Below the pieces are notes generated by a model. The model was not told the origin of the DNA. It was given only the letters and a program-made list of their open reading frames with translations, and searched no databases. A DNA stretch of 52,137 nucleotides, from IMG/VR virus record IMGVR_UViG_2778261534_000002. One strand, given 5' to 3'. This DNA comes from a virus (Duplodnaviria; Heunggongvirae; Uroviricota; Caudoviricetes). Positions 7,640-50,480 of the stretch are shown one piece after another. Positions within the stretch are counted from its first letter, which is position 1. Every line of letters starts with the position of its first letter. The translations under genes and the position numbers were made by a program.

Positions 7640-8638
7640 ATGCAATCACTGAATACTGTTACGGATCGCTTCTCCCTGGTAGAGAAAATCCGCAAACACA
7701 CACCGCAGAACAACCGAAATTATGTCATTCAGTCGGTACGAGACACATTCAACTCGCCAGAAACAAAAGAGCGTATCGCGCTGGGTGAGATGTATGGTTA
7801 TTACGGTCATGGTCGCCGGGCGATGCACTATAACAAAACGAAAAGCCTGAACTTGCCGGAAGTCTCTGTTGTGATGGTAGATGGGAAGCCTGTTGTATTG
7901 GAGAACGTGCCGTCAAACAGGACTATCGACATTTCGATTGACGACAACGGCATTGTTACGCATACGCAGGAAATACTGGATACAGACACCGGGCGTATTG
8001 TTCAGGGCATGATTAATTCTGGTGCTGGTGGTTGGTCGTGGGCTACATCTGGTCCAGATTCATCGGTATCCCTGGTAAAGTCTTTCCACGGCTTTGATTA
8101 CGTAACTGTGCCTAACTATATCAGCCTCGACAAGAAAAGCCTGATGCTTGAATCAGCAGAAGAGCGCGATGCGGCTATTCATGCAGCACTTATCGAACAA
8201 GGTTTTACCGATAACGCTGCTACGGATCTGGTTCACCACTTTTCAGCAATGAAAAATCAGCAAGCCATGCTCGAATCTGCACATCGTGAAGCCCTGGAAT
8301 CAGAATTGATGCTCCTTGAAGTGGAAAACATACAGCTTCGAGATAAGCTGCGCGCTCAAACAGCGATGATGGAAAGCCAGGGGGAAAATGCAAAGCAATG
8401 CCGCCGGATTTTGCGTGACGCTATCCAGGAAATGCCTGTTTTTATCAGCGCAGAACAGCGCCGGGCGCTCTGCCGTATGCAGTCTGAAGATGATGCCCGC
8501 ATAGTGGCTGCGATGCTTGAATCTCTTGGGGCAAATGCTACTTATGGCTTACCGGTATCAGGCAAGAAAGAACCAGAGTTATCACCGAAGGAGAACAAAA
8601 ACACCACCCCGTTACTCTTCGTTTCTAGAAGGGGGTAA
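7640..8638 (+). CDS. head morphogenesis/processing protein (Pro-like)
   Basis: 332 aa, tightly follows portal-like gene; C-terminal coiled coil. Confidence 0.35.
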   Translation: MQSLNTVTDRFSLVEKIRKHTPQNNRNYVIQSVRDTFNSPETKERIALGEMYGYYGHGRRAMHYNKTKSLNLPEVSVVMVDGKPVVLENVPSNRTIDISIDDNGIVTHTQEILDTDTGRIVQGMINSGAGGWSWATSGPDSSVSLVKSFHGFDYVTVPNYISLDKKSLMLESAEERDAAIHAALIEQGFTDNAATDLVHHFSAMKNQQAMLESAHREALESELMLLEVENIQLRDKLRAQTAMMESQGENAKQCRRILRDAIQEMPVFISAEQRRALCRMQSEDDARIVAAMLESLGANATYGLPVSGKKEPELSPKENKNTTPLLFVSRRG

Positions 8639-8651
8639 CCGCCTTGTTAAG

Positions 8652-8666
8652 TTAAATTTCTAACAT
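8652..8666. promoter_or_regulatory. operator-like 15-bp motif
   Basis: TTAAATTTCTAACAT, member of recurrent family ATGTTAGAAAACTAA / TTAGTTTTCTAACAT. Confidence 0.4.
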
Positions 8667-8753
8667 AGTGTATTTATATACACTGTTGATCCTGGTGGAT
8701 GGGATCGAGTAGGATCGCGGTCACTGCTCCGGTAGCGACTGCCAAAAAAGCAA

Positions 8754-8777
8754 AAGCCGCTGAGAAGCGGCTTTTTG
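8754..8777 (+). terminator. rho-independent terminator
   Basis: AAGCCGC-tgagaa-GCGGCTT stem followed by TTTTT. Confidence 0.6.
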
Positions 8778-8838
8778 GGTGTATAAATCCACTGCCATAG
8801 ATTTATACGGTAGATAGATTTTTTCACGGAACTATCTG

Positions 8839-9801
8839 GTGAGTATTTTAAATTCAGTTTCAGTAACTTTCAACACTTCTGAGTATAAAAACAACACTGA
8901 ATACCACAAAAAAATCAAAGGTCATCAGTTGAGTTTTTTTGCTCGTCATAGCGGTCTTCTTTCCCCTTCACATAGCGCCATTATTGCCGAGTTCGCCAAC
9001 CTGGCAGGGTCTACCGATGAATACATGATCCGTCGCTCATATGCTGATATGTCCGAGATTACAGGACGCAGCATTTCTACTGTGCGCCGGGCATTTGCTG
9101 AAGCGACGAAGTGCGGAATGCTTGTTAAGCAACATCAGGTAGCGAATAACAATGCCCAGGTGTGTAACGTATATCGGTTTACGACACAATTTCTCCACTT
9201 CATTCATGTAGCAATGGAGATAGGGGGTAAGCAGGGCATCAAATTTGCCAACGCCACAAAGCTGGTTAAGCAGTTGATTTCAAAGGTTCGTTATTTTTTT
9301 GAAACTGGGAACCCCCTGTTCAAATTGAACAAGTCCCCCCATGTTCAAAATGAACAGCCAATAGAAAATAAGAGTCACTCTATAGCCAAAAGAAGAGAAA
9401 GATCATGCGCGGTTCAGCCAAAGGCTTCACCAGCAGATAGTACTCAAGCGGATAATGGGGGACTGGATAAAAAAACAGTAATCAGGGAAGAACATACCAA
9501 CCACTGCCTGGCGGCGGCAAAAGCGAGAGCTGCAAAGCGTCGTTCAGACGAGGGGCACGCAAAACGGCAGGCTCTGTATCGTACCGCTGAAAAGCTGGCA
9601 AAAAAATTTGCATGGATACGTAGTGCCGCTACCGCAGTGAATAAGCCTAAACAATCCAGTGCCCTGGATTTCTCAATGGATTATTCTGGCTCCCAGGGGT
9701 GTGTAACCATTGGTGAAGCCTTTGACCTGATGAAACAGCGTGGCTATCGGTCTGAATTTGACCGTGAGGATTGGTCAATCCCGGCGGGCTTTAGGGGATG
9801 A
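8839..9801 (+). CDS. RepL-like replication initiator (tentative)
   Basis: 320 aa (track start GTG); HTH-like N-terminal region, K/R-rich C-terminus; preceded by operator-like motif and palindromes; identification tentative. Confidence 0.35.
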   Translation: MSILNSVSVTFNTSEYKNNTEYHKKIKGHQLSFFARHSGLLSPSHSAIIAEFANLAGSTDEYMIRRSYADMSEITGRSISTVRRAFAEATKCGMLVKQHQVANNNAQVCNVYRFTTQFLHFIHVAMEIGGKQGIKFANATKLVKQLISKVRYFFETGNPLFKLNKSPHVQNEQPIENKSHSIAKRRERSCAVQPKASPADSTQADNGGLDKKTVIREEHTNHCLAAAKARAAKRRSDEGHAKRQALYRTAEKLAKKFAWIRSAATAVNKPKQSSALDFSMDYSGSQGCVTIGEAFDLMKQRGYRSEFDREDWSIPAGFRG

Positions 9802-9854
9802 CCTGTGTGTCTACAAAACATCCCAATGATCGGAAAATGCTCGCTCGATGATTT

Positions 9855-9898
9855 GTGTTAGAAAATTAATTTGCTGTTTCTAAATCGGAATGTATGAT
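9855..9898 (+). promoter_or_regulatory. operator-like motif overlapping sigma70-like promoter of immunity module 1
   Basis: GTGTTAGAAAATTAA (9855-9869) followed by -35 TTGCTG (9871-9876), 16-nt spacer, -10 TATGAT (9893-9898). Confidence 0.45.
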
Positions 9899-10084
9899 CT
9901 GCATCATCGACTGAAGTCATCCATTGCTGAAATTTTTAGTTGATCTTCCATGTTTTCAGGCTTATATTCATGCCGTCGTAGCAAATTCTGCGACCGGGTT
10001 TGACAGCCTGAATACTTACGCGGACAACCGCACATTTCCGATATTGCGGTATTTTTGTGTCCGTAAAACCACGTTACGCCCGAA

Positions 10085-10180
10085 TTATGGTGGGGCGTGA
10101 TGGGGAGGCTTCGGCCTGCTGGTTTCGTAAGTGCCAGTCTGTCAACCCTGTCACGTCCTGCCACCTGTTTGACAGCGGGT
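10085..10180 (+). ncRNA. c4-like antisense RNA candidate
   Basis: structured leader upstream of icd-like gene; TCGTAAGT (10125-10132) is complementary to ACTTACGA at the icd RBS (10197-10204); GGC-ttcg-GCC tetraloop hairpin; boundaries approximate. Confidence 0.3.
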
Positions 10181-10214
10181 CGCAGGTTGTTTATCAACTT
10201 ACGAGGCCGTAACT

Positions 10215-10439
10215 ATGGTTAATGCCAATCCTTGCTCACGCCCAGAATTCATCTGGCGTTTCCACTCCCTGCAAAAACACTGCGATCACTTCGCAATTGC
10301 CGCAACCGAAAAAGAAGCCCGTTCTCTGATCCCTGATCAGTATGGTGTTCTTACTGGTCGTTTCTCTACTTCCCCACAACCAAACACTAATCCCTGGTAT
10401 CGCAATATTACCAATCCCGGAATTGCGGAGGCACACTGA
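10215..10439 (+). CDS. Icd-like small protein of immunity module 1
   Basis: 74 aa; paralog of 49339..49554 (shared EFIWRF and AATE-EARS motifs); stop overlaps ant start (TGATG). Confidence 0.5.
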   Translation: MVNANPCSRPEFIWRFHSLQKHCDHFAIAATEKEARSLIPDQYGVLTGRFSTSPQPNTNPWYRNITNPGIAEAH

Positions 10440-11146
10440 TGGAAATCTGCATTCTTGAAAAGCCATCAATGACCAGCATTGAGATCGCGGAGCTGGTGGG
10501 AAGTCGCCCGGATAACGTTAAACGCACTATTGAACGCTTGAGTAAATCAGGTGTTATTCCACTTCCTCCAATGGAGGTTTCCGAAAATATCAATAACTTA
10601 GGATTTAAAGTTAAAAATTCACACTACGTCTTCGAAGGCGAGCAAGGCAAGCGTGACAGTATCATTGTCGTTGCGCAGCTTTCTCCCGAATTTACCGCCC
10701 GGCTGGTGGACCGCTGGCGCGAACTGGAAGAACAAGTACGCCAGCCGTTGACCGAAATAGAGATGATCGCCGCAATGGCTGCAAATGCAGTTCAGCAGCA
10801 AAAGCGGCTTCATGTTGTTGAGTCAAAGGTTAGCCAGGTGGTAGAAACCGTCGAGCAAATCAAGAAGGGCAACATGCCAGATGGTTACATTGGCTACCGC
10901 CAGCTGGCTGCGAAATGTGGCCTGACCGAAGCCAAATGCCGCAACCTTGTCAACGCTTACCGGATTCCCACCGATACACATGAGTTTTTAACTCCAGAGG
11001 GGGTATTGTCGCGTCGTTCCATCGTGGCCTTATCTCCCTTCATGAATGCTTTTAACCGGATGATGTCGGAGGCTGAACACCGAGGAAAACGCTGGTATCA
11101 CCCCAAAATGGGGCAATTCCAGGTGATCGGTTGGGGAGGTGAGTGA
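10439..11146 (+). CDS. ant: antirepressor (Ant-like)
   Basis: 235 aa; N-terminal SIEIAELVG...PDNVKRTIE region typical of Rha/Ant-type phage regulators; paralog of 49554..50480; translationally coupled to icd-like gene. Confidence 0.55.
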   Translation: MEICILEKPSMTSIEIAELVGSRPDNVKRTIERLSKSGVIPLPPMEVSENINNLGFKVKNSHYVFEGEQGKRDSIIVVAQLSPEFTARLVDRWRELEEQVRQPLTEIEMIAAMAANAVQQQKRLHVVESKVSQVVETVEQIKKGNMPDGYIGYRQLAAKCGLTEAKCRNLVNAYRIPTDTHEFLTPEGVLSRRSIVALSPFMNAFNRMMSEAEHRGKRWYHPKMGQFQVIGWGGE

Positions 11147-11343
11147 TGGACATCATGCAGGCGGTAAAAAAAATCAGGGAAGGACAGGCTGAAGTGTGCC
11201 GCCGTAAAGCATGGAGTGTTGGTGTATGGGCCTGGCCTGATAATTACTCTACTACCGGATGGTTTTGTATTAATGGACTCCAGGTCCGGGAAGTTGATTT
11301 ATCGACGGCTGATATAGTCGGTAATGATTGGATCGTGACTTGA
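11143..11343 (+). CDS. small DUF2829-like protein
   Basis: 66 aa; CRRKAW...GNDWIVT signature shared with four other domains in the window; start overlaps ant stop. Confidence 0.45.
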   Translation: MMDIMQAVKKIREGQAEVCRRKAWSVGVWAWPDNYSTTGWFCINGLQVREVDLSTADIVGNDWIVT

Positions 11344-11351
11344 AGCGTGAT

Positions 11352-11376
11352 GCCCCGGCCTGGCCGGGGCTTTTTT
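11352..11376. terminator. bidirectional intrinsic terminator
   Basis: GCCCCGGCC-tgg-CCGGGGC then TTTTTT, between convergent genes. Confidence 0.65.
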
Positions 11377-11861
11377 CATGCCTCATTAGTTGAGGTTGCT
11401 GCGTCTCCGACTGGTAACAGAGCGGTATTGCGTGGTTCGCCAGCAGGCCAGCGATAGCCAGACACTCTTGATGTTGGGAATGCGCGAATATTAACCGCAT
11501 CCCCCTGGTTCCCACCCAGGACAAGCAGATCGCCATTGGCGCGGCGTCCGACAACGAAGCCTACGTGCCCACCGCCTACGCGGGTAAATACAACGATACA
11601 TCCGTATGCCGGTGTATCTAATTTCTCGCCCCAATCCAGATAGGATTTTGCCGACTCAAATCTTGTTGAGCGGATGCCTACACGTTCCAGCATTGCACCG
11701 ACAAATGCTGCGCACCACGGCGTTTCATCGTCTTTAATTCCGCCGCGCTTGATGTCGCGCCAGAACTGAACGATTTCAGGGTTGTGTTTAGCGCCTTTTA
11801 TTTCAGTCAGGCCAATGTGCTTACGGGCTTCAATTAGCCAGCGAGGTTCAATGTTTGCCAT
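11376..11861 (-). CDS. CHAP/NlpC-P60-like putative cell-wall hydrolase (TIGR02594-type)
   Basis: 161 aa; conserved Cys motif PWCAAFV and His motif GGHVGFV. Confidence 0.45.
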   Translation of the reverse strand: MANIEPRWLIEARKHIGLTEIKGAKHNPEIVQFWRDIKRGGIKDDETPWCAAFVGAMLERVGIRSTRFESAKSYLDWGEKLDTPAYGCIVVFTRVGGGHVGFVVGRRANGDLLVLGGNQGDAVNIRAFPTSRVSGYRWPAGEPRNTALLPVGDAATSTNEA

Positions 11862-19625: not shown

Positions 19626-19756
19626 TTGATTAAGGTCACTCTTTACTCTAAAAGCAAATCCGACCTGTTGCATATAGACCATCCTTGAGTAGTATCTCTC
19701 TTGTTTTACAAATCTAACGTTGTTGTTATTATTTCGCATATTTACTATCAATGGGT

Positions 19757-19771
19757 GTGTTAGAAAATAGC
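19757..19771. promoter_or_regulatory. operator-like 15-bp motif
   Basis: GTGTTAGAAAATAGC. Confidence 0.35.
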
Positions 19772-19904
19772 GCGAAAGAGAAGGCGTCGCAGTGAATATT
19801 CTGAAACATCCCCACATGCCGCAGCTCTTAGAGAACTGGAGAAAAACCCAGATCTAATCAAAAGGAACCATGAGCATTACGAGCAGGTTCGCGTCCTGGA
19901 CTGG

Positions 19905-20213
19905 TTGTATCGCAATATGCGTTATGTGTATGAGCATACTCACGCCACTCCAAACGGTGGCCTGCGAGGCATAAGGACGGCAATAAAAATGGTGGCAGAG
20001 GGCCAAAAGAAGGGATATCCCGATCTTTCTATAGACCTTGCTTGTGGGGGATACCACGGAATGCGCATTGAGATGAAACATGGGAGAAATCGCCTGACTC
20101 CCGAACAACTCGTCTGGATGACCCGCCTCACTGAAGCCGGTTACTACTGCTTTGAGGCGCGCAGTGCCGCTGAAGCCATAAAAGCTATCACGGAGTATGT
20201 TTGTCTTGATTAA
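19905..20213 (+). CDS. VRR-NUC domain nuclease
   Basis: 102 aa; GYPDLSIDL...EMK arrangement typical of VRR-NUC (PD-(D/E)xK) proteins. Confidence 0.6.
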   Translation: MYRNMRYVYEHTHATPNGGLRGIRTAIKMVAEGQKKGYPDLSIDLACGGYHGMRIEMKHGRNRLTPEQLVWMTRLTEAGYYCFEARSAAEAIKAITEYVCLD

Positions 20214-20227
20214 ACGGAGAAATCGTT

Positions 20228-20428
20228 TTGCGTTTACTTAACGTGGCAGAACTTATCCCTGCAGGAACTAATGCTATCGCTCGTCGTCGCTCATGGCAGC
20301 AGGCTCTATGTATTGAGATCTCGAAACGTATCAATGGAAGTTTTGAAGCTCGCAATATTGTTACTGGCGATAAGGTTCACATAACCCCGGAAAGTGCAAG
20401 CGCTGATGATTGGGAGTTTGTACATTGA
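20228..20428 (+). CDS. small DUF2829-like protein
   Basis: 66 aa; ARRRSW ... ADDWEFV signature as in the other DUF2829-like domains. Confidence 0.4.
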   Translation: MRLLNVAELIPAGTNAIARRRSWQQALCIEISKRINGSFEARNIVTGDKVHITPESASADDWEFVH

Positions 20429-20724
20429 GCAAAAAATATTATGTGAGTCTGGCGTTCGCTGACGATGCGGGGAGGACGCGGAGTATCACGTTGAGCACAC
20501 CGGTTAAGGCTGTGACAGCGCCGTTAATCCGTGAAGCTCTCAGAGAGCTGGAATTGGGTGAAAACTCGGCACTGTTGTCGGTTAGTTGGTTAGGGAAAAT
20601 GTCAGAGAAACAATACGTGGATGGAGTTACCCCAATAACAGTAATGAGGCTACTTTCATTGCTGCAATGGGCCATCGTACCTGTATTTATCGCGTATCTT
20701 ATTTATCAGGCTGCAACACAGTAA
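20410..20724 (+). CDS. hypothetical protein with C-terminal transmembrane helix
   Basis: 104 aa; hydrophobic C-terminus LLSLLQWAIVPVFIAYLIY; followed by strong terminator. Confidence 0.4.
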   Translation: MGVCTLSKKYYVSLAFADDAGRTRSITLSTPVKAVTAPLIREALRELELGENSALLSVSWLGKMSEKQYVDGVTPITVMRLLSLLQWAIVPVFIAYLIYQAATQ

Positions 20725-20730
20725 TTGCAT

Positions 20731-20758
20731 AAAAACCCGCCAATTAGCGGGTTTTTTG
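20731..20758. terminator. rho-independent terminator
   Basis: ACCCGC-caatta-GCGGGT followed by TTTTTTG; A-run upstream allows bidirectional use. Confidence 0.8.
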
Positions 20759-20798
20759 TTTATTGCATCTTCCGGTACCGCCATCAAACTAATAAAAT

Positions 20799-20813
20799 AT
20801 GTTAGAAAACTAA
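20799..20813. promoter_or_regulatory. operator-like 15-bp motif (consensus copy)
   Basis: ATGTTAGAAAACTAA, identical 15-mer also at 42923 and as reverse complement at 31428 and 48523. Confidence 0.45.
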
Positions 20814-20822
20814 TTTAACAAA

Positions 20823-22046
20823 GTGACGGGAACAGCAATGAGTCAACACACTGATACTTCTAATCTGGAAATTATCTCGACAGCAATTGAAACGCTGCGC
20901 ACACAAATCGCTCTTATACAGAAACGGAATCCGGGTGATGACCTGTCAAAGCGACTGCACGAGAGTGTCATTGCCACTACAGATAACCTGGTGGCGGAAA
21001 TCAACAAGCTGCTTGATGATGGGGCAGTTGATTACAATAAGCTGGTGGATCAGTTTGAGGAATACCAACAAGCCGTTAATGATGGCTTGATCCGTTTTTC
21101 ACAAGTCACAGGCGTATCAGCGACAGTTGAAAGCCTGGGTGATGCAGTTAATCAATTTGCCGCGAATATGCGTAATGAGATCGGCAATCTGGAAGCGCGT
21201 CTTGAACAGGCAAATACACTGCGTAAATCTGCCGAAGCCGATTTGAACCGTTACAAAAAAGACTATCCGCCCAGCCTGACAAAGCGGCTGGATGTTGCGG
21301 AGAAGGATAACCGCGCGCTGAAAAGAGAGCGCCGGGAACTAAAAGAGCGTTTAACCAAGCTCAATCAGCAATGCATTGATTATCAAGGCGAAGGCGTCAC
21401 ACTGCGTAAAAAGTTGGCTACAGCGCAGAGCATTATCGAAACATTAAAGCGAGAGTGCTCACAGCTTGGTCACGATCTGAACCGTGCTTGTGGCATGGGA
21501 CAAAGACCAGAGACATTTCCACTCATGTATGATGGAAGGGATGCCATTGCCTACATCCATGAGTATCCGCACGGCCTGGTTGCGGAAACAGGGCAGCGTG
21601 GCGAAGCACTGTTGACGGCTAATTACCATCAACAAATCAGAACCAATCGCCTGTTAACGATGGATGTGATCCCATCGGTATGGGGAACGCCGCTTTACTA
21701 TCGCCTGCCGGGCTTCGAAAAGGACTGGAATACCGACATAGACGAATGTCTCGCAGATAAAATTATGGCGTACCTGGAGACGGATTTTCCGCGCTTATAT
21801 CGCCGGATTATGGACTCTAAGGATGCGCCAATCGATGAATTAAAAATGCGTCCGGAGACGCTGGAGGCAATCAAGCAGACGGAGTTTGATACTGTATTCA
21901 GTGTGGCCTGCATTCCAAGCTGTTTCCATGAAAGCATCCCGTTCATGCAAGGAGATCGTCGTCAGGAAATCATTGACGCTTGCCGGGTATGGGCGAACGA
22001 ATGGGATAAGAAGAATGGGGGTGTAGAAGATCTTTATGGGAAATAA
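20823..22046 (+). CDS. hypothetical protein, N-terminal coiled coil
   Basis: 407-aa ORF (probable start ATG 20838); coiled-coil N-half, Cys/His-containing C-half; no recognizable catalytic motif. Confidence 0.5.
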   Translation: MTGTAMSQHTDTSNLEIISTAIETLRTQIALIQKRNPGDDLSKRLHESVIATTDNLVAEINKLLDDGAVDYNKLVDQFEEYQQAVNDGLIRFSQVTGVSATVESLGDAVNQFAANMRNEIGNLEARLEQANTLRKSAEADLNRYKKDYPPSLTKRLDVAEKDNRALKRERRELKERLTKLNQQCIDYQGEGVTLRKKLATAQSIIETLKRECSQLGHDLNRACGMGQRPETFPLMYDGRDAIAYIHEYPHGLVAETGQRGEALLTANYHQQIRTNRLLTMDVIPSVWGTPLYYRLPGFEKDWNTDIDECLADKIMAYLETDFPRLYRRIMDSKDAPIDELKMRPETLEAIKQTEFDTVFSVACIPSCFHESIPFMQGDRRQEIIDACRVWANEWDKKNGGVEDLYGK

Positions 22047-22047
22047 T

Positions 22048-22062
22048 GTGTTAGAAATCTAA
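22048..22062. promoter_or_regulatory. operator-like 15-bp motif
   Basis: GTGTTAGAAATCTAA. Confidence 0.35.
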
Positions 22063-22203
22063 AATCACAATTCGAATGTATTGATTGTGGAGATAACTTA
22101 ACATAGAATTTTCCTTGCTGGTGGGCAGTACCCACGTTTCGCTTGCTGGGCTTGATAGTCACTTATTGGTTATTGTTCGCCCACCAGCATTTAACAAATT
22201 AAA

Positions 22204-23280: not shown

Positions 23281-23357
23281 GATGGTGTAGCTCAGTAGGA
23301 TAGAGCAGCAGCCTTCTAAGCTGTCGGTCGGTGGTTCGAATCCACCCACCATCGCCA
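23281..23357 (+). tRNA. tRNA-Arg (anticodon UCU)
   Basis: 77 nt; 7-bp acceptor stem GATGGTG/CACCATC, anticodon loop CTTCTAA, T-loop GGTTCGAATCC, 3' CCA. Confidence 0.9.
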
Positions 23358-23362
23358 ATTTA

Positions 23363-23449
23363 GGGGAGTTAGTCCGTAGGGGTAGCGGGGTAGACTGTAA
23401 ATCTACTGTCATTGCGACTCGGGTGGTTCGACTCCATCACTCCCCACCA
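23363..23449 (+). tRNA. tRNA-Tyr (anticodon GUA), long variable arm
   Basis: 87 nt; acceptor GGGGAGT/ACTCCCC, anticodon arm GTAGA-CTGTAAA-TCTAC, variable-arm stem GTC/GAC, 3' CCA; D-arm atypical. Confidence 0.7.
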
Positions 23450-23453
23450 AATT

Positions 23454-23529
23454 GCCGGTTTAGCTCAGTTGGTAGAGCGCCTGCCTTGTAAGCAGGATGT
23501 CAGCGGTTCGAGTCCGTTAACCGGCACCA
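23454..23529 (+). tRNA. tRNA-Thr (anticodon UGU)
   Basis: 76 nt; TAGCTCAGTTGGTAGAGC D-arm, anticodon loop CTTGTAA, T-loop GGTTCGAGTCC, 3' CCA. Confidence 0.9.
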
Positions 23530-25480: not shown

Positions 25481-25556
25481 GGCCCTTTAGCTCAGTGGTT
25501 AGAGCTGGCGACTCATAATCGCACGGTCACCGGTTCAAGTCCGGTAGGGGCCACCA
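25481..25556 (+). tRNA. tRNA-Ile2 (anticodon CAU, lysidine type) or tRNA-Met
   Basis: 76 nt; very close to E. coli ileX-type sequence as recalled (GGCCC.TTAGCTCAGTGGTTAGAGC...CTCATAA...GGTTCAAGTCC...GGGGCCACCA). Confidence 0.85.
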
Positions 25557-26978: not shown

Positions 26979-27086
26979 TATTAGGTGTTTAATATTAATT
27001 TTCTAATACAATCATCTTTTTACCAGTCTATACAGTTTTAACATTCTCATTATCATCCCCTCGGTCATTTCCTGCCCGGGGGATTA

Positions 27087-30375: not shown

Positions 30376-31413
30376 TTACCAGAGCTTCGCGGCGTACTGC
30401 GTTTGGGGGAATGTGTATCCGTAACGTTCTTCGATTGCTTTGCCGTATTTTTTACGAGCTTCATTCAGTTTAATGCCGGTCAGGTCGTCTCCAGAGGCCA
30501 TCATTACGTCTAACAATTCCAGATCCATTTTATCCAGCCTTGCCATTGCTTCACGTGATGTACGTATCTTACGCTCAATGATATGGCGAATAGCCGGATC
30601 GGCATCCTCCAGCATCTTAGCGGATTTCTGCTTAAGGCTTTCATTGCGAATATCGATGTTCCTTAAGATGTACGACTTCGCAACGTAGCTTGGCTGGTGT
30701 TTTTCCAGGTCACGAACACGATATAAGTTAAAATCGCCGAGAAGGCTGCAAGGTACCGATTCGACGCCAGAATAAATTGTAATGCTCCGGCGTTCACCAA
30801 CATTATTGACAACGGGGATCGTTGTCTTCGGTAGTCTTGCGAAAACCAATGCGCCATGTGCGCCAACTCTAAAGCGAGAAAGGGCATTGCTGCCTTCGAT
30901 GTTTGTTGTCAGCACAACATCTGTATATGCCTCTTTACGCGCCCGGTAGATCTCGCCTTCAGGCTCAGCTTCAAAGAAGCGCTGTTCTTCTTCAAGAGCA
31001 CCTACAATTTGAGAAAAAACCCTATTTTTCAGGCTTTTCTTTATGATTTTGTCGTATTTTTTGAGCAATTGTTCACGTGTAAATGTACGTGTTGTTGTAG
31101 CGCTTTGCACAACAACATGCGTGCTTTGATTGGTGTCCTCAATGATGAATGGGATCGGAGAATATACAGACTCAACAATGTTCGACGCTTTGCCGTCGGC
31201 ATCGCGGCACATGTCAACGAAGGCTTTCCATTCAGCAAGACATTTTTCAGCTTCTTCTAATATGTTTTGGTCATGCGTTAATGCAACATGGCGGAATTCC
31301 TCGCCAGCATAACTGGTATCATGGAAAACAGAGTTTGCGACCACCAGCTCTTTCCACCGTTCAGCGGTTTGCAGGAACCGTTTGTACTCTTTCTCGATCG
31401 ACTTCTTACTCAT
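30376..31413 (-). CDS. c1-locus protein, candidate immunity regulator of unknown family
   Basis: 345 aa at the position of c1/coi in P1 (between pacB and the lox-equivalent site); no similarity to P1 C1 as I recall it; operator-like motif 15-29 nt upstream of its start. Confidence 0.5.
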   Translation of the reverse strand: MSKKSIEKEYKRFLQTAERWKELVVANSVFHDTSYAGEEFRHVALTHDQNILEEAEKCLAEWKAFVDMCRDADGKASNIVESVYSPIPFIIEDTNQSTHVVVQSATTTRTFTREQLLKKYDKIIKKSLKNRVFSQIVGALEEEQRFFEAEPEGEIYRARKEAYTDVVLTTNIEGSNALSRFRVGAHGALVFARLPKTTIPVVNNVGERRSITIYSGVESVPCSLLGDFNLYRVRDLEKHQPSYVAKSYILRNIDIRNESLKQKSAKMLEDADPAIRHIIERKIRTSREAMARLDKMDLELLDVMMASGDDLTGIKLNEARKKYGKAIEERYGYTFPQTQYAAKLW

Positions 31414-31427
31414 TATTCCTACTCGAT

Positions 31428-31442
31428 TTAGTTTTCTAACAT
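31428..31442. promoter_or_regulatory. operator-like 15-bp motif (consensus copy)
   Basis: TTAGTTTTCTAACAT, reverse complement of ATGTTAGAAAACTAA; just upstream of the c1-locus gene. Confidence 0.45.
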
Positions 31443-31513
31443 AAAATTACTATGACAAATTTATGTCGAATAACAGAGTGAGTAAAGGATCGAACTGTGA
31501 TTTTTTGTCATCA

Positions 31514-31807: not shown

Positions 31808-32836
31808 ATGAGTGAATTAATTATCTCTGGCAGCTCCAGTGGTTTTCTGCGCAACATTGGCAAAGAGTACCAGGAGGCCGCAGAAAACTTTATGCGGTTC
31901 ATGAATGACCAGGGGGCTTACGCGCCTAATACTTTGCGCGATCTCCGGTTAGTGTTTCACTCCTGGGCGAGATGGTGTCACGCTCGCCAGCTCGCCTGGT
32001 TCCCGATCTCTCCAGAGATGGCCCGCGAGTATTTTCTTCAGCTGCATGATGCTGATCTGGCTTCGACCACCATTGATAAGCACTACGCCATGCTGAACAT
32101 GCTGCTTTCGCATTGTGGCCTTCCGCCACTTTCGGATGATAAAAGTGTTTCTCTGGCTATGCGGCGCATCCGGCGTGAAGCGGCAACGGAAAAAGGCGAA
32201 CGAACAGGCCAGGCTATACCGCTGCGGTGGGACGATCTGAAACTGCTCGACGTCCTGTTGTCCAGGTCAGAACGGCTGGTGGACCTGCGCAACCGGGCTT
32301 TTCTCTTTGTTGCATACAATACGCTGATGCGCATGTCTGAAATCTCGCGTATTCGTGTAGGAGATCTGGACCAAACAGGTGACACTGTCACGCTACATAT
32401 TTCACACACGAAGACAATAACGACCGCCGCCGGGCTTGATAAGGTGCTTTCCCGTCGCACTACTGCTGTGCTGAATGACTGGCTGGATGTTTCCGGGCTT
32501 CGTGAACATCCTGACGCGGTGCTGTTCCCGCCGATACACCGTAGCAATAAGGCCAGGATTACGACAACGCCCCTTACTGCACCTGCAATGGAGAAAATAT
32601 TTAGTGACGCCTGGGTGTTGCTGAATAAAAGAGATGCCACTCCAAACAAGGGGAGATACCGGACGTGGACCGGGCATAGTGCTCGTGTCGGGGCTGCTAT
32701 CGATATGGCAGAAAAGCAGGTGTCTATGGTGGAGATCATGCAGGAAGGAACCTGGAAGAAACCGGAAACACTTATGCGGTATCTGCGCCGTGGCGGCGTG
32801 TCTGTGGGGGCTAATAGCCGCCTGATGGATTCATAA
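31808..32836 (+). CDS. dre: Cre-family tyrosine recombinase (Dre-type)
   Basis: 342 aa; Cre-like blocks WFPISPEMAREYFL, VSLAMRRIRRE, RNRAFLFVAYNTLMRMSEISRIRVGDL, WTGHSARVGAAIDMA; adjacent rox site. Confidence 0.9.
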   Translation: MSELIISGSSSGFLRNIGKEYQEAAENFMRFMNDQGAYAPNTLRDLRLVFHSWARWCHARQLAWFPISPEMAREYFLQLHDADLASTTIDKHYAMLNMLLSHCGLPPLSDDKSVSLAMRRIRREAATEKGERTGQAIPLRWDDLKLLDVLLSRSERLVDLRNRAFLFVAYNTLMRMSEISRIRVGDLDQTGDTVTLHISHTKTITTAAGLDKVLSRRTTAVLNDWLDVSGLREHPDAVLFPPIHRSNKARITTTPLTAPAMEKIFSDAWVLLNKRDATPNKGRYRTWTGHSARVGAAIDMAEKQVSMVEIMQEGTWKKPETLMRYLRRGGVSVGANSRLMDS

Positions 32837-32851
32837 ATTAAATTTCTAACA
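32837..32851. promoter_or_regulatory. operator-like 15-bp motif
   Basis: TTAAATTTCTAACAC directly after the dre stop codon. Confidence 0.35.
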
Positions 32852-32909
32852 CATCTTTTTAGATTGTTATCTTTGCTGTAAAGTACCCTCGCCTATTTCG
32901 GAGGGTGCT

Positions 32910-42881: not shown

Positions 42882-42922
42882 AATGTATACCGACTCTGTT
42901 TTGTTCCGAGCGGTAAAATAAT

Positions 42923-42953
42923 ATGTTAGAAAACTAAAATCAATGTTCTAACA
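42923..42953. promoter_or_regulatory. operator-like motif pair
   Basis: ATGTTAGAAAACTAA (42923-42937) plus partial inverted copy TGTTCTAACA (42944-42953). Confidence 0.45.
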
Positions 42954-42978
42954 AATTTTGAGTGCGTAAATGATTTGA

Positions 42979-47678: not shown

Positions 47679-47868
47679 AATTTCCCCAGCATCGTGACGA
47701 AAAACATCAGCACGGCAAAAAGCTCAATACCTAATTCAAGTAGCGCCAACGCCCCGAAAAAAAACACATAGAACAGGCCAATCTCATTCACAGATGGCTG
47801 GTGGATCGCACTTAAAGCTATAAGCATCATGTCCTCCAAACATTTATCAGTGATGATATTAATGTTTT

Positions 47869-47883
47869 GTGTTAGAAAATCAA
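47869..47883. promoter_or_regulatory. operator-like 15-bp motif in divergent promoter region
   Basis: GTGTTAGAAAATCAA with partial inverted partner TATCTAACC 10 nt downstream. Confidence 0.4.
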
Positions 47884-47947
47884 TTTTGAATATCTAACCA
47901 TTTTGATCAATCATAGAAAAATCGTTGAAAAGTAAGAGACTGCCATC

Positions 47948-48526
47948 ATGCAGAAACAGAGTTATTGGGAGAAACAGAGACAAAAAGCCATGCAAAAATT
48001 GGCTGACCCGGCCTGGCGAGAGGAACAAAGGGCAAAGCGCCTTCAACAAGCTCAACGCCAGCAGCAGCGAGCGAGAGAAAAAGCCGCATCGCCTGAATAT
48101 CGGCAAAAGAAAATTGAAAAAGCAAAACAATATGAACAGCGGAGAAAAGATAAATCTGTATCCGCTCCGCCCAAAAAAACACGCACGTCACGCGGCCTGA
48201 AGGGCAGATCACTCACAGCCGATGAACGCCGGATACAGACCGCTATCGGTACTCTCCCCTGCATTGCCTGCCATATTCACGGGCAACATAGCCCAGTGGT
48301 ATCCCTGCACCATATCTTCGGGAGAACGGCAGAGAACGCGCATAAATATGTCCTCCCTTTGTGTAAATGGCACCACCAGTACGCAGCGCCAGCCGAGGTC
48401 CGAGACCAATATCCCTGGCTGGTCCCTGTTCATGCTGATGGAAAAATAGGCGGAAAAGCAGATTTCATGCGGCACAATGCCGATGAAATGACGTTGTATC
48501 TGATGGCGATTGAATTGATAAATTAG
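47948..48526 (+). CDS. Ref-like HNH endonuclease
   Basis: 192 aa; K/R/Q-rich low-complexity N-terminal 80 aa followed by Cys/His motifs CIACHIHG ... LHHIFG ... CKWHHQ, the architecture described for P1 Ref. Confidence 0.5.
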   Translation: MQKQSYWEKQRQKAMQKLADPAWREEQRAKRLQQAQRQQQRAREKAASPEYRQKKIEKAKQYEQRRKDKSVSAPPKKTRTSRGLKGRSLTADERRIQTAIGTLPCIACHIHGQHSPVVSLHHIFGRTAENAHKYVLPLCKWHHQYAAPAEVRDQYPWLVPVHADGKIGGKADFMRHNADEMTLYLMAIELIN

Positions 48527-48537
48527 TTTTCTAACAT
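48523..48537. promoter_or_regulatory. operator-like 15-bp motif (consensus copy)
   Basis: TTAGTTTTCTAACAT overlapping the ref-like stop; followed by -35 TTGAAT / -10 TACATT-like promoter. Confidence 0.4.
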
Positions 48538-48857
48538 TTTAAGTTGAATTGAAAAACACTCCGATGTACATTCACTACCGATTGGCACACCGGTCAACTT
48601 TTTGAGACAAACTATTTAGTTTTTCGTATTATTGCCGCCGCCATACCTATGGCGGTGCAATATAGGTGGCTGAAAAGCCCCCGTTGACTCACGGTGTTCC
48701 AGCCTTTATTGCGCCGCCACCAGACCGTGGAACAGTCGATGGCGGCTCCGAAAGCAAGGAGTCACTACACTATGAACAACTACAGTCTTTCCCCATCACT
48801 CGTCGTCCACCACTCACGCGATAATCTGCATTCTTTACTCGCGCTGGGGGTGTCAAA

Positions 48858-49025: not shown

Positions 49026-49131
49026 AAATACAGACTGTTGCGCCCTGGCATTATCGTGGGGTATATTTCTACGGCACCTTAGAAAAACGGGTGCCGGGAT
49101 TGGAACCCCGGATAATGTCAAAGGCGACACA

Positions 49132-49153
49132 GACGCCGAAAGCGTCTTTTTTT
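49132..49153 (+). terminator. rho-independent terminator
   Basis: GACGC-cgaaa-GCGTC followed by TTTTTTT. Confidence 0.65.
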
Positions 49154-49169
49154 GTGTCATGCCATCGCA

Positions 49170-49300
49170 CAGCCATACGTAGCGTTTAGCTCAGAGATCA
49201 ATGGTAGTGCTGGCTGGGCTGCCGAAAGGCAGGCCGGTTCCCTTTGACGCCGGTAGTTCCAACCCAGTCAGTGCTACCGCCATTGAGATTGGAACCTCAC
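49170..49300 (+). ncRNA. c4-like antisense RNA candidate (module 2)
   Basis: structured leader upstream of second icd-like gene; CCTTTGAC (49232-49239) is complementary to GTCAAAGG at the icd RBS (49311-49318); CTGCC-gaaa-GGCAG hairpin; boundaries approximate. Confidence 0.3.
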
Positions 49301-49338
49301 GCGGTAGCTCCTTAACTTAGTCAAAGGAGGCTGCCAAT

Positions 49339-49554
49339 ATGGCTACTATCCCCACCCCAACTCATTCTGAATTTATCTGGCGTTTCTATTCCTGCCAAAA
49401 ACACCTCTATATCTGCGTCATGGCTGCAACCGAAGCAGAAGCGCGCTCATACCTTCCCGAAGAACCCTGCATTTTTGCTGCTCGCTTCACTCTTGATGCG
49501 ATGGAGATCCTCAATTACTGGAATCTGCCGATGAACTGCGTGGAGGTGCACTGA
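49339..49554 (+). CDS. Icd-like small protein of immunity module 2
   Basis: 71 aa; paralog of 10215..10439; SD AAGGAGG; stop overlaps ant start. Confidence 0.5.
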   Translation: MATIPTPTHSEFIWRFYSCQKHLYICVMAATEAEARSYLPEEPCIFAARFTLDAMEILNYWNLPMNCVEVH

Positions 49555-50480
49555 TGAATCTGTCCATCTCTCAAAAAGCGACAATGACCAGCATTGAGAT
49601 CGCGGAACTGGTAGGTAAGCGCCCTGATAACGTTAAACGCACCATTGAACACCTGGCGGAACGGGGGGTAATATCTTTTCCTCAAATTGAGGAAAAGCCC
49701 ACCGCAGGCCGCCCGGCGAGCTATTACGTCTTCGAAGGCGAGCAAGGCAAGCGCGATAGTATTGTCGTCGTCGCACAGCTCTCTCCCGAATTTACCGCCC
49801 GGCTGGTGGACCGCTGGCGCGAACTGGAGAATGCCCGGGTACAGTTAAAATCAAAAGCCGAAATCCTGGCTGAAATGGCGCAAATGCATCTTGAGCATGA
49901 ACGCCGGATCAACGCCGTTAATGCCCAGGTAGCCGAAGTATCGGCACAAGTGTCCAAAGTCGCTGAAACCGTCGAGCAAATCAAGAAAGGCAATATGCCG
50001 GAAGGCTACATTGGCTACCGCCAGCTGGCGGCGAAATGTGGCCTGACTGAAGCCAAATGCCGCAACCTTGTCAACGCTTACCGGATTCCCACCGATACGC
50101 ATGAGTTTTTAACTCCAGATGGTTTGCTTGCGAGACGCTCCATTGTGGCCCTGGCCCCCTTCCGGAAAGCCTTTAAGCAGGTGATGTCGGAGGCAGAACC
50201 ACGCAATAAACGCTGGTATCATCCAAAGATGGGGATGTTTCAGGCAATCCACCATCCTGTGCCTGAAAGTCCAAAGGCAAACCTGTCGTTGCATACCGCC
50301 AGAGAGAGGATTAAAACAGGGTATGCAATCGTATGCCGTCGAGCATCTTGGCCTGAAGGTGTATGGGTATGGCCCGAAGGTGGATCACGAAAGCACTGGC
50401 GCACTATCCGGGATGGGAAAATCCATGCGATTGATTTAGCTCCAGAGGATGTTGTTGCTACGGACTGGATTGTTAGTTAA
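49554..50480 (+). CDS. antirepressor (Ant-like) fused to C-terminal DUF2829-like domain
   Basis: 308 aa; first ~235 aa paralogous to 10439..11146; last ~60 aa (CRRASWPEGVW ... VATDWIVS) paralogous to the separate 66-aa ORF 11143..11343. Confidence 0.55.
   Translation: MNLSISQKATMTSIEIAELVGKRPDNVKRTIEHLAERGVISFPQIEEKPTAGRPASYYVFEGEQGKRDSIVVVAQLSPEFTARLVDRWRELENARVQLKSKAEILAEMAQMHLEHERRINAVNAQVAEVSAQVSKVAETVEQIKKGNMPEGYIGYRQLAAKCGLTEAKCRNLVNAYRIPTDTHEFLTPDGLLARRSIVALAPFRKAFKQVMSEAEPRNKRWYHPKMGMFQAIHHPVPESPKANLSLHTARERIKTGYAIVCRRASWPEGVWVWPEGGSRKHWRTIRDGKIHAIDLAPEDVVATDWIVS

Follow-up and report, generated by a model that had tools for sequence, protein, structure and literature searches.

In bacteriophage P1, the c4 RNA is processed by RNase P and acts with Rho-dependent polarity, the translational block leading secondarily to premature termination. 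The immI operon of P1 and its control by c4 are described in several studies (PMC8546580, PMC8201110, PMC12197685) and in the GenBank annotation of P1; P7 owes its different specificity to changes in the c4 loops that are compensated in their targets (PMC6906374, PMC12197685). Related RNAs are known from two other systems: the CI RNA of satellite phage P4 ends transcription of the replication operon prematurely (PMC4825925), and in Gifsy-1 a short RNA from the leader acts in trans to switch on downstream translation (PMC4825925). In D6-like plasmids, c4, icd and an antirepressor make up a region related to ImmI, and a second c4/icd region is present as well (PMC6799933).

Identity and layout of the locus

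We consider it highly probable that positions 9854-11376 of the 52,137-nucleotide stretch of viral DNA analysed here (the window) form a P1 immI-type operon for secondary immunity (control of anti-immunity) in a D6-like plasmid prophage, most likely P1-like in its action. This reading is supported by homology, structure and covariation; computed here were the homology and the fold, the assignment to RNA families, the complementary sequences at all four sites, the covariation of the RNA with its targets across related loci, and an operator motif that recurs and keeps its position. The operon is essentially already known and is ordinary among phages of the D6 group. The window is 99.1% identical to phage D6 across 9700-11500, and several indels separate the two outside the 9854-11376 locus. 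Identity to P1 reaches 88.9% over 9955-10326, a segment that spans P51b, a1/b1, c4, a2/b2 and the 5' half of icd; this homology breaks off sharply at ~9938 and ~10326, as in a mosaic segment. An earlier sequence-only reading had proposed a P1 immI architecture for this region, and every element that it listed was located at the position proposed. The a'/a2 pair, the upstream a1/b1 copies, the third open reading frame and the P51b homologue at 9940-9968 come in addition to that reading. The elements are as follows.

9854..9872, plus strand: candidate operator of the C1-like repressor, TGTGTTAGAAAATTAATTT, a repeated 19-bp motif at a place equivalent to Op51/Oc4 of P1
9871..9898, plus strand: candidate repressor-controlled promoter, analogue of P51a/P2c4 (-35 TTGCTG at 9871-9876, 16-nt spacer, -10 TATGAT at 9893-9898)
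9904..10197, minus strand: mechanically called ORF of 97 aa that covers the c4 leader region
9940..9968, plus strand: homologue of the P51b/P1c4 promoter (TTGATC, 17 nt, TATATT)
9975..10056, plus strand: 5' leader of IsrK/SeqA-like architecture, from Rfam models, fold and P1 projection; in order, hairpin 1, hairpin 2 (a1 in its loop), single-stranded b1, and a terminator-like hairpin with a U-run
10000-10006, plus strand: a1, TTGACAG, projected from the P1 features
10014-10021, plus strand: b1, ACTTACGC, projected from the P1 features
~10028-10056, plus strand: the terminator-like hairpin with its U-run, which separates b1 from c4
10089..10165, plus strand: c4 antisense RNA, its length of 77 nt taken from the homologous processed RNA of P1
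~10106-10117, plus strand: UUCG hairpin, stem-loop 1 of c4
10125-10132, plus strand: b' loop of c4, UCGUAAGU (in DNA letters TCGTAAGT)
10139-10145, plus strand: a' of c4, single-stranded CUGUCAA
10169..10175, plus strand: a2, TTGACAG, the target of a' by complementarity, placed from the misc_binding feature of P1
10197-10204, plus strand: b2 target ACTTACGA, projected from the P1 b2 feature (entered as 10197..10206 with GAGG)
10203-10206, plus strand: icd Shine-Dalgarno sequence GAGG, overlapped by b2
10215..10439, plus strand: icd, Icd-like cell-division inhibitor, 74 aa, annotated in D6
10439..11146, plus strand: 'ant', putative anti-repressor, 235 aa, with an N-terminal Rha/Roi-type winged-helix domain
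11146..11343, plus strand: third ORF, 65 aa (phrog_7385, E = 5e-49; orf17 in D6)
11352..11376, plus strand: intrinsic terminator closing the operon, an 8-pair all-G-C stem followed by TTTTTT
~30376-31413, minus strand: C1 homologue, 21% identical to P1 C1

The c4 RNA, its targets and its alleles

The Rfam C4 family (RF01695) matches positions 10083-10168 over its full model (1-87) with 69.6 bits, for a gathering score of 45. Folding, which the sequence-only reading had suggested as a check, gives a stable 77-nt RNA (minimum free energy -42.8 kcal/mol, z = -5.2) and reproduces the family structure, namely an outer stem, two hairpins and a single-stranded segment. The UUCG-tetraloop hairpin pointed out in that reading is indeed the first stem-loop of c4. 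Its 'structured leader' does have the c4-type structure, but by homology to P1 it would be a discrete processed gene, beyond a mere leader. RNAduplex, applied to c4 and the leader, unfolded c4 fully and was uninformative.

The RNA is identical to P1 c4 save for five of the six nucleotides of the b' hexamer, which reads GUAAGU here versus ACUAAC in P1 and ACAAUC in P7; since it is unlike both, targets of the P1 or P7 type should escape repression by this c4. The complementary hexamer ACTTAC is present in both b1 and b2, while a', a1 and a2 are conserved. Across the 52-kb window there are just three occurrences of the 7-mer ACTTACG, its complement included, all within 190 nt, in b1 (10014-10020), b' (10126-10132) and b2 (10197-10203). 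When the P1 features are projected through the alignment, the pair of complementary 8-mers at 10125-10132 and 10197-10204, already singled out from the sequence alone, coincides exactly with the annotated b'/b2 of P1. The pairing extends over 8 bp for b'/b2 and 7 bp for a'/a2. Both ends of c4 and their flanks are identical to P1, and the processing determinants are therefore retained.

The correspondence between RNA and targets was followed in 186 related loci, collected by a pattern that fixes the c4 scaffold, so that the loops and targets are tested and the stems are not; many of these loci are close relatives of one another. Among them b' has 7 alleles and a' has 2, and 12 combinations of the two occur. 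The target is the reverse complement of the RNA in 170 of 172 loci for b1, 151 of 152 for b2, 169 of 172 for a1 and 151 of 152 for a2, and this concordance is strong covariation support for pairing. Compared with P1, five of six bases have changed in a coordinated manner at three sites; together with the concordance across the 7 alleles, this argues for RNA pairing and not for drift or a protein. It is thus highly improbable that c4 and its targets survive as a non-functional relic of recombination with a P1-like phage, or that the minus-strand ORF 9904..10197 is a real gene: the abrupt ends of the P1 homology do indicate a mosaic, and a stop-free minus-strand stretch covers c4 in most loci (median 88 codons, a feature that does not discriminate ORF status), but promoter, operator and icd are intact, the plus strand of the region is covered by two Rfam RNA families, and this ORF, which the sequence-only reading had called spurious, exists as a mechanical call and is absent from the D6 annotation.

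In contigs with two copies of the module, the b' alleles differ in all five cases. We are evenly divided on a broader interpretation of these data, in which the b' hexamer and the 2-nt a' variant of the P1-scaffold c4 would form a combinatorial immI address code, co-varying with both target copies and reassorting freely among P1- and D6-type backbones, operators and outputs. The window, with GUAAGU and a P1-type a', would then be heteroimmune to P1 and P7, and two orthogonal c4-icd-ant modules would be a selected design that allows separate responses to different superinfecting relatives. No description of the allele series was found in the literature searched, which did not include the account of the D6 genome by Gilcrease and Casjens (2018). 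In the window itself, a second, orthogonal c4-icd-ant module is located at 49.0-50.5 kb.

Transcription, gene products and proposed control

The sequence-only reading had placed an operator over a promoter. The motif at 9854-9872 is real and repeated, but its sequence is D6-type and not that of the P1 operator. In the window it has 11 copies with up to 3 mismatches, versus 0.07 expected, including copies just upstream of the c1 homologue (31425-31443), repL (8649-8667) and ref (47868-47886). It stands at a fixed offset of -252 in 37 D6-type loci; the P1 operator is found at -222 in 129 loci, and the two are mutually exclusive. Operator type follows the phage backbone, not the c4 allele. The P1 C1 operator consensus ATTGCTCTAATAAATTT was not found in the c4 upstream region. 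A P1-type operator was rejected here, its lone 3-mismatch consensus match (42942) coinciding with the D6-type motif, which was found de novo instead. The D6-type 19-bp motif fits the divergent C1 homologue of the phage as a candidate operator.

Two promoters may serve the operon. That at 9940..9968 was called by the promoter scan, aligns to the annotated -35 and -10 boxes of P1c4 and is invariant in D6-type loci. The upstream one, at 9871..9898, matches the consensus poorly and scored under the cut-off of the promoter scan, and it is therefore a candidate promoter. Its -35 box overlaps the operator by 2 nt, paralleling Op51 over the P2c4 -35 in P1, and its spacer contains an invariant TTTCTAA (9878-9884) that is an inverted copy of the operator core. 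Across three divergent upstream lineages, the -35 TTG, the -10 TAnnAT and TTTCTAA are conserved and the flanks vary.

The first gene had been proposed as icd-like, and its product shares 61% identity with P1 Icd (E = 8e-27 in sequence comparison) and matches NF033153 (40 bits, cut-off 25) and phrog_1426. As also proposed, its stop overlaps the ant start in a TGATG (10437-10441), which suggests that icd and ant are translationally coupled. A second TGATG (11144-11148) joins ant and the third ORF. The latter shares 38% identity with residues 244-308 of the paralogue of 308 aa encoded at 49554-50480, and corresponds to the C-terminal domain of this fused Ant of module 2; both c4-icd modules of the phage precede paralogues of the 235-aa 'ant' product.

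The gene that the sequence-only reading named ant is equivalent to P1 ant in position only, and its product is no homologue of P1 Ant1/2: BLASTP gave no significant similarity to P1 Ant1 (E = 0.37), and PF03374 (ANT/KilAC), present in P1 Ant1, was not found in the window protein. Pfam matches are to HTH_24 and, at 26.4 bits and under the 29.9 cut-off, to Phage_pRha, and a sequence search of the PDB returned no significant match. The best PHROG is phrog_63, 'anti-repressor Ant' (E = 1.4e-47), and the label of putative anti-repressor rests on this database name. An anti-repressor role of the Rha/Roi-like protein towards the phage's C1 is the least certain step of our scheme, and one to which we give an even chance.

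An alternative that we regard as possible, if on balance doubtful, leaves the RNA control as it is and takes the output for a Roi/Rha-type DNA-binding regulator that lytic growth requires, the module then gating a lytic regulator and Icd rather than inactivating C1. The Rha/Roi winged-helix N-terminus, the remark 'similar to HK97 Roi' in the D6 record and the lack both of an ANT/KilAC domain and of similarity to P1 Ant1 are consistent with it. So is the 71.5%-identical homologue in the Stx1 phage Stx1_14744, which lies right after a cro-like gene in an early-right operon, with no c4-icd pair immediately upstream, and is annotated as 'DNA-binding protein'. The presence of Ant paralogues behind both c4-icd modules and the name of the best PHROG argue against it, as does Gifsy-1, in which an IsrK/C4-type leader governs an experimentally anti-repressor-like protein (PMC4825925), although there the likeness is one of leader type.

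Keeping the anti-repressor reading, we propose that a single transcript is made from the constitutive P51b-type promoter (9940-9968), and that the same operon may also be transcribed from the upstream promoter overlapped by the C1-like repressor operator (9854-9872). This transcript would carry, in order, the a1/b1 leader, the 77-nt c4, a2/b2, icd, the Rha/Roi-like 'ant' and the small ORF. Once excised from it, c4 would pair through a' and the b' loop UCGUAAGU with a2/b2 and occlude the icd ribosome-binding site. Translation of icd would be the gate for the downstream genes: because ant is coupled to icd and the third ORF to ant by the TGATG overlaps, a block at icd would keep the downstream proteins off in the lysogen. 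The GUAAGU loop would confer an immI specificity distinct from that of P1 and P7. The processed state of c4, its cleavage by RNase P, the polarity of the translational block on ant and the role of C1 are assigned by analogy with P1 and are presumed to be conserved here.

The leader upstream of c4 bears on how the RNA acts. Rfam c4-a1b1 (RF03163) matches 9962-10014 at 55.9 bits (gathering score 46.7), and the module-1 leader (9975-10056) scores 46.5 bits against isrK (RF01394), under its gathering score of 50, a threshold that the module-2 leader (49074-49152) passes with 62.7 bits. By analogy with IsrK of Gifsy-1, the a1/b1 leader may be a short RNA that counteracts c4. The leader could also indicate that c4 is mainly a transcription-termination factor like the P4 CI RNA, its pairing enforcing termination at the leader hairpin (~10028-10056) or inside icd. 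A hairpin with a U-run that resembles a terminator and separates b1 from c4 would agree with this, as would the resemblance to isrK, the alignment of the module-2 leader to the P4 cI region (72.9% identity) and the description of IsrK as a structural homologue of P4 SeqA by the Gifsy-1 authors (PMC4825925). We nevertheless find termination as the main mode of action unlikely, as b2 lies over the icd Shine-Dalgarno sequence exactly as in P1, whose record states 'repression of icd ant translation', and the leader hairpin, with its 12-nt loop, was below the pass mark of the terminator scan. Termination and a translational block are compatible and not mutually exclusive.

Significance and comparison with known systems

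The locus matters chiefly to annotators: the D6 reference record marks neither the c4 RNA and its four targets nor the operator and two promoters, and a 97-codon minus-strand ORF can be miscalled over these elements. It leaves the current understanding of the c4 mechanism unchanged, the allele diversity being a modest extra. It is also a clean natural case in which an RNA-RNA specificity (six loop bases and two target copies) has been swapped as a unit while its surroundings change, with both the operator type and the output protein unlike those of P1. Many P1- and D6-like phage-plasmids bear resistance genes, and typing of the c4 loops could predict which phage-plasmids of these kinds are mutually immune.

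Among described systems, P4 immunity (CI RNA, seqA/seqB/seqC) is similar in its Rfam C4 family RNA and in having complementary sites both upstream and downstream in its own transcript, and differs by the absence of an icd/ant output. The isrK-orf45-anrP region of Gifsy-1 (Salmonella) resembles our locus by a leader with the same two hairpins and terminator (the isrK model), a processed stable RNA downstream, and a small ORF translationally coupled to an anti-repressor-like gene. However, the module-1 leader is just under the isrK gathering threshold, and the isrK-anrP interval was read by the authors as orf45, not as a c4-type RNA followed by icd (PMC4825925). The same locus is found in Escherichia phage D6 (NC_050154; orf19-orf18-orf17) and in the D6-like plasmid pYU39_89, at 99.1% identity; in the D6 record icd and the 'anti-repressor Ant' are the parts that are annotated. 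The immI of P7, the classical heteroimmune partner of P1, shares the scaffold; it has a' CUGCUAA and its own b' hexamer, whereas in the window a third b' allele is joined to an a' of the P1 type.

In the immI operon of P1, the same order of elements is found (Op51/P51a, P51b, a1/b1, c4, a2/b2, icd, ant1/ant2). The two have in common the 77-nt c4 outside the b' hexamer, identical a', a1 and a2 sequences, b2 placed over the icd Shine-Dalgarno sequence, a homologous P51b, the related Icd, an icd stop that overlaps the next start, and an operator, a candidate one in the window, that overlaps the upstream -35 box. They differ in the b' loop; in the operator, which in the window is another 19-bp sequence located 30 bp further upstream; in the replacement of Ant1/Ant2 by an unrelated Rha/Roi-like protein and a small ORF; and in genomic context, the operon lying after repL in the window and before kilA-repL in P1. 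On this comparison, the locus would be immI-like in its working but with a different output protein.

An immI-type operon and its overlapping genes

In icd and in all of its RNA features, the operon at ~9854-11376 (module 1) belongs to the P1 immI type. Searching the whole window with Rfam at gathering thresholds returned a C4 antisense RNA at 10083-10168 (69.6 bits; threshold 45) and the family 'a1, b1 targets of C4' at 9962-10014 (55.9 bits; threshold 46.7). Site positions were obtained by projecting P1 GenBank features through the window-P1 alignment; a' and b' denote the pairing segments of c4, a1/b1 its upstream targets and a2/b2 its downstream targets.

Module 1 features projected from P1 (plus strand)
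-35 9940-9945, -10 9963-9968: P51b-type promoter, also called by the promoter scan
10000-10006: a1
10014-10021: b1
10089-10165: c4
10169-10175: a2
10197-10204: b2
10215: icd start
10439: ATG of the gene after icd

The complementary 8-mers singled out by the sequence-only reading, 10125-10132 and 10197-10204, coincide exactly with the projected b' loop and b2 site, and its UUCG hairpin is stem-loop 1 of the 77-nt RNA in the C4 family fold. The best-supported account is the P1-type mechanism: the operon's own transcript would yield c4, which would pair with a2/b2 and block icd translation, and the downstream genes, because they are coupled to icd, would be kept silent in the lysogen; a C1-like repressor would in addition shut the upstream promoter.

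The reported TGATG overlap of icd with the following gene ('ant', 235 aa) was confirmed; another TGATG ties 'ant' to a 65-aa ORF, downstream of which lies a strong terminator (11352-11370). Judged by its sequence, Icd is clearly a homologue of P1 Icd (61% identity; NF033153 score over cut-off). The same cannot be said of the gene that the sequence-only reading named ant: there is no homology to P1 Ant1/2 (BLASTP E = 0.37), and the ANT/KilAC domain of P1 Ant1 is missing from the 235-aa protein, whose one recognised domain is an N-terminal winged helix of the Rha/Roi type. The protein's best PHROG match carries the label 'anti-repressor Ant', its relatives are variously annotated as Roi, DNA-binding protein or antirepressor, a Stx1 phage copy (71.5% identity) is located in the early-right operon, and a PDB sequence search matched no solved structure. 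Anti-repressor activity is plausible but unproven; that the output is a Roi-like regulator instead is quite possible, if short of probable.

A second module encodes a 308-aa paralogue, whose first 232 residues are 66% identical to the 235-aa protein and whose C-terminal 65 residues are 38% identical to the 65-aa ORF. Module 1 (10439-11343) therefore carries a split version of the protein fused in module 2 (49554-50480), the small C-terminal domain being phrog_7385. Across loci, the c4 allele, the type of operator and the type of output protein vary independently of one another, and the locus is a mosaic built of interchangeable parts. In the Stx1a-converting phage Stx1_14744, an isrK/c4-like leader (record 8783-9033) falls within a CDS (record 8556-9578) labelled 'phage antirepressor Ant', directly downstream of a D6-type Ant homologue; the start of this CDS is probably mis-annotated across the RNA elements.

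Leader structure and covariation of c4 with its targets

With the threshold relaxed, the isrK model matched 9975-10056 (46.5 bits, under its threshold of 50). This leader comprises two hairpins, the second with a1 in its loop, a single-stranded b1, and a terminator-like hairpin with a U-run, followed by c4. In Gifsy-1, the equivalent short RNA, IsrK, is made by termination, read-through giving an inactive mRNA, and in trans it activates translation of a small ORF to which an anti-repressor-like gene is coupled; a processed stable RNA is found downstream of isrK, and structural kinship with P4 SeqA/CI was pointed out by the authors (PMC4825925). By analogy, the a1/b1 leader of module 1 may have two roles, one in attenuating transcription and one in titrating c4. 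It seems unlikely that c4 acts primarily through termination and not by blocking translation; the two are not exclusive. The isrK (RF01394) and c4-a1b1 (RF03163) models match the same element at 9975-10056 and 49074-49152; such overlap suggests one RNA class, c4-a1b1 being listed in clan CL00128 (C4) and isrK without clan.

The 77-nt c4 folds at -42.8 kcal/mol (z = -5.2; 0 of 200 shuffles fold as well), with b' in a 9-nt loop. All 77 nt are identical to P1 c4 save the b' hexamer, which is GTAAGT in the window, ACTAAC in P1 and ACAATC in P7, and the hexamer in b1 and b2 is correspondingly ACTTAC, GTTAGT and GATTGT. Thus, three separate sites have changed in concert, at five of six positions; in the 52 kb, ACTTACG or its complement is found at just three places, all within one 190-nt stretch (b1, b', b2). 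That the locus is a relic, or that a minus-strand ORF is the real feature here, is highly improbable given these coordinated changes. With its distinct b' allele, module 1 should be blind to the P1 and P7 c4 RNAs, and vice versa.

A c4 scaffold pattern with six b' positions and two a' positions left free was scanned against IMG/VR, GTDB genomes and metagenomes. Together with reference loci and the window, 186 c4 copies were collected, representing seven b' and two a' alleles in 12 combinations; the window's pair (GTAAGT and a P1-type a') accounts for 11 copies. Among cases captured by regular expressions, the target is the reverse complement of the RNA at b1 in 170/172, a1 in 169/172, b2 in 151/152 and a2 in 151/152, and in missed cases inspected by eye the b2 sites match, save in one recombinant. 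The pattern fixed the scaffold, and with many loci being close relatives the number of independent events behind these counts is limited: at least seven, one for each allele. The agreement is strong evidence that c4-target pairing is under selection, as antisense control predicts. At five loci (L142, L044, L139, L158, L160), b' or a' is mismatched to one or both targets; they may represent natural recombination that left immunity derepressed or cross-wired, or chimeras from metagenome assembly. Where a P1-like contig holds two P1-scaffold copies, their b' alleles differ in 5 of 5 pairs (L015/L077, L018/L053, L056/L064, L156/L169, L179/L181), as they do in four more pairs whose members lie on separate contigs with a common IMG genome id (L012/L056, L008/L033, L034/L070, L044/L075), consistent with a requirement for orthogonality. 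The allele series and the rule that co-resident copies differ may be unpublished.

The window itself holds a second, orthogonal c4-icd-ant module at 49040-50480. Its leader is similar to the ones in RCS47, JL22, phiP27 and Stx phages and also to the P4 cI region.

Features of module 2
49074-49152: isrK match (62.7 bits), carrying a1, b1 and terminator
49100-49106: a1, TTGGAAC
49117-49124: b1, GTCAAAGG
49197-49284: c4-2 (77.1 bits), b' CCUUUGAC, a' GUUCCAA
49289-49295: a2
49320-49327: b2, over the icd2 Shine-Dalgarno
49339-49554: icd2, 45% identity to icd1
49554-50480: Ant paralogue, 308 aa, TGATG-coupled

A candidate C1 operator and promoter

The P1 C1 operator consensus was not found upstream of c4. 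A repeat search with the upstream sequence showed that 9854-9872 (TGTGTTAGAAAATTAATTT) recurs across the window, the pattern TRTGTTAGAAAAYTAATTT giving 11 matches at up to three mismatches against 0.07 expected.

Further copies of the 19-bp motif
31425-31443: 12 nt upstream of the C1 homologue
8649-8667: upstream of repL
47868-47886: upstream of a ref homologue (PF16786)
42922-42955: overlapping inverted pair
20798-20816, 22047-22065, 26992-27010, 32835-32853, 48520-48538: other copies

The C1 homologue (~30376-31413, minus strand) is 21% identical to P1 C1 (tblastn, E = 2e-6). As C1 operators in P1 are carried by the c1, repL and c4 operons, the motif is the best candidate for a D6-type C1 operator, and its ten further copies, none of them marked in those stretches of the D6 record that were examined, would trace a putative C1 regulon. 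Upstream sequence was long enough at 168 loci; of these, 129 have the P1 operator and 37 the D6-type motif, each at a fixed offset, and none has both; operator type is independent of c4 allele. Three divergent upstream lineages conserve the operator, TTTCTAA (an invariant inverted copy of the operator core), TTG at -35 and a TAnnAT -10 (TATGAT, 9893-9898, in the window). From these islands, and because the promoter scan made no call there, we infer rather than report a repressor-controlled promoter at 9871-9898, with the operator over its -35.

Relation to D6 and P1

The locus is already known: at 99.1% identity, 9700-11500 corresponds to 19632-21432 (reverse strand) of the published Escherichia phage D6 genome (NC_050154), and c4, icd, an antirepressor and a second c4/icd region have been stated in print for D6-like plasmids (PMC6799933). 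In the D6 record, repL is followed in turn by an Icd-like protein, 'anti-repressor Ant (similar to HK97 Roi)', the hypothetical orf17 and, convergently oriented, a hydrolase with a CHAP domain; no RNA, operator or promoter feature is annotated. Several indels outside the locus mark the window as a D6-like plasmid prophage, not D6 itself. Replaced or rearranged segments lie at ~23.4-25.3 kb, 39.3-41.9 kb and 44.5-46.6 kb, and four tRNA genes within 23281-23526 and 25481-25553.

The c4-icd region of P1, P7, SJ46, RCS47 and other P1-like phages is 86-92% identical to 9955-10326, and P1 homology upstream of c4 starts only at ~9938. Of the features defining the P1 immI kind, the output protein is the only one that clearly differs; in place of the P1 operator consensus a different 19-bp motif occupies the equivalent position, and the candidate operator and promoter at 9854-9898 would have the same operator-over-promoter geometry as Op51/P51a of P1.
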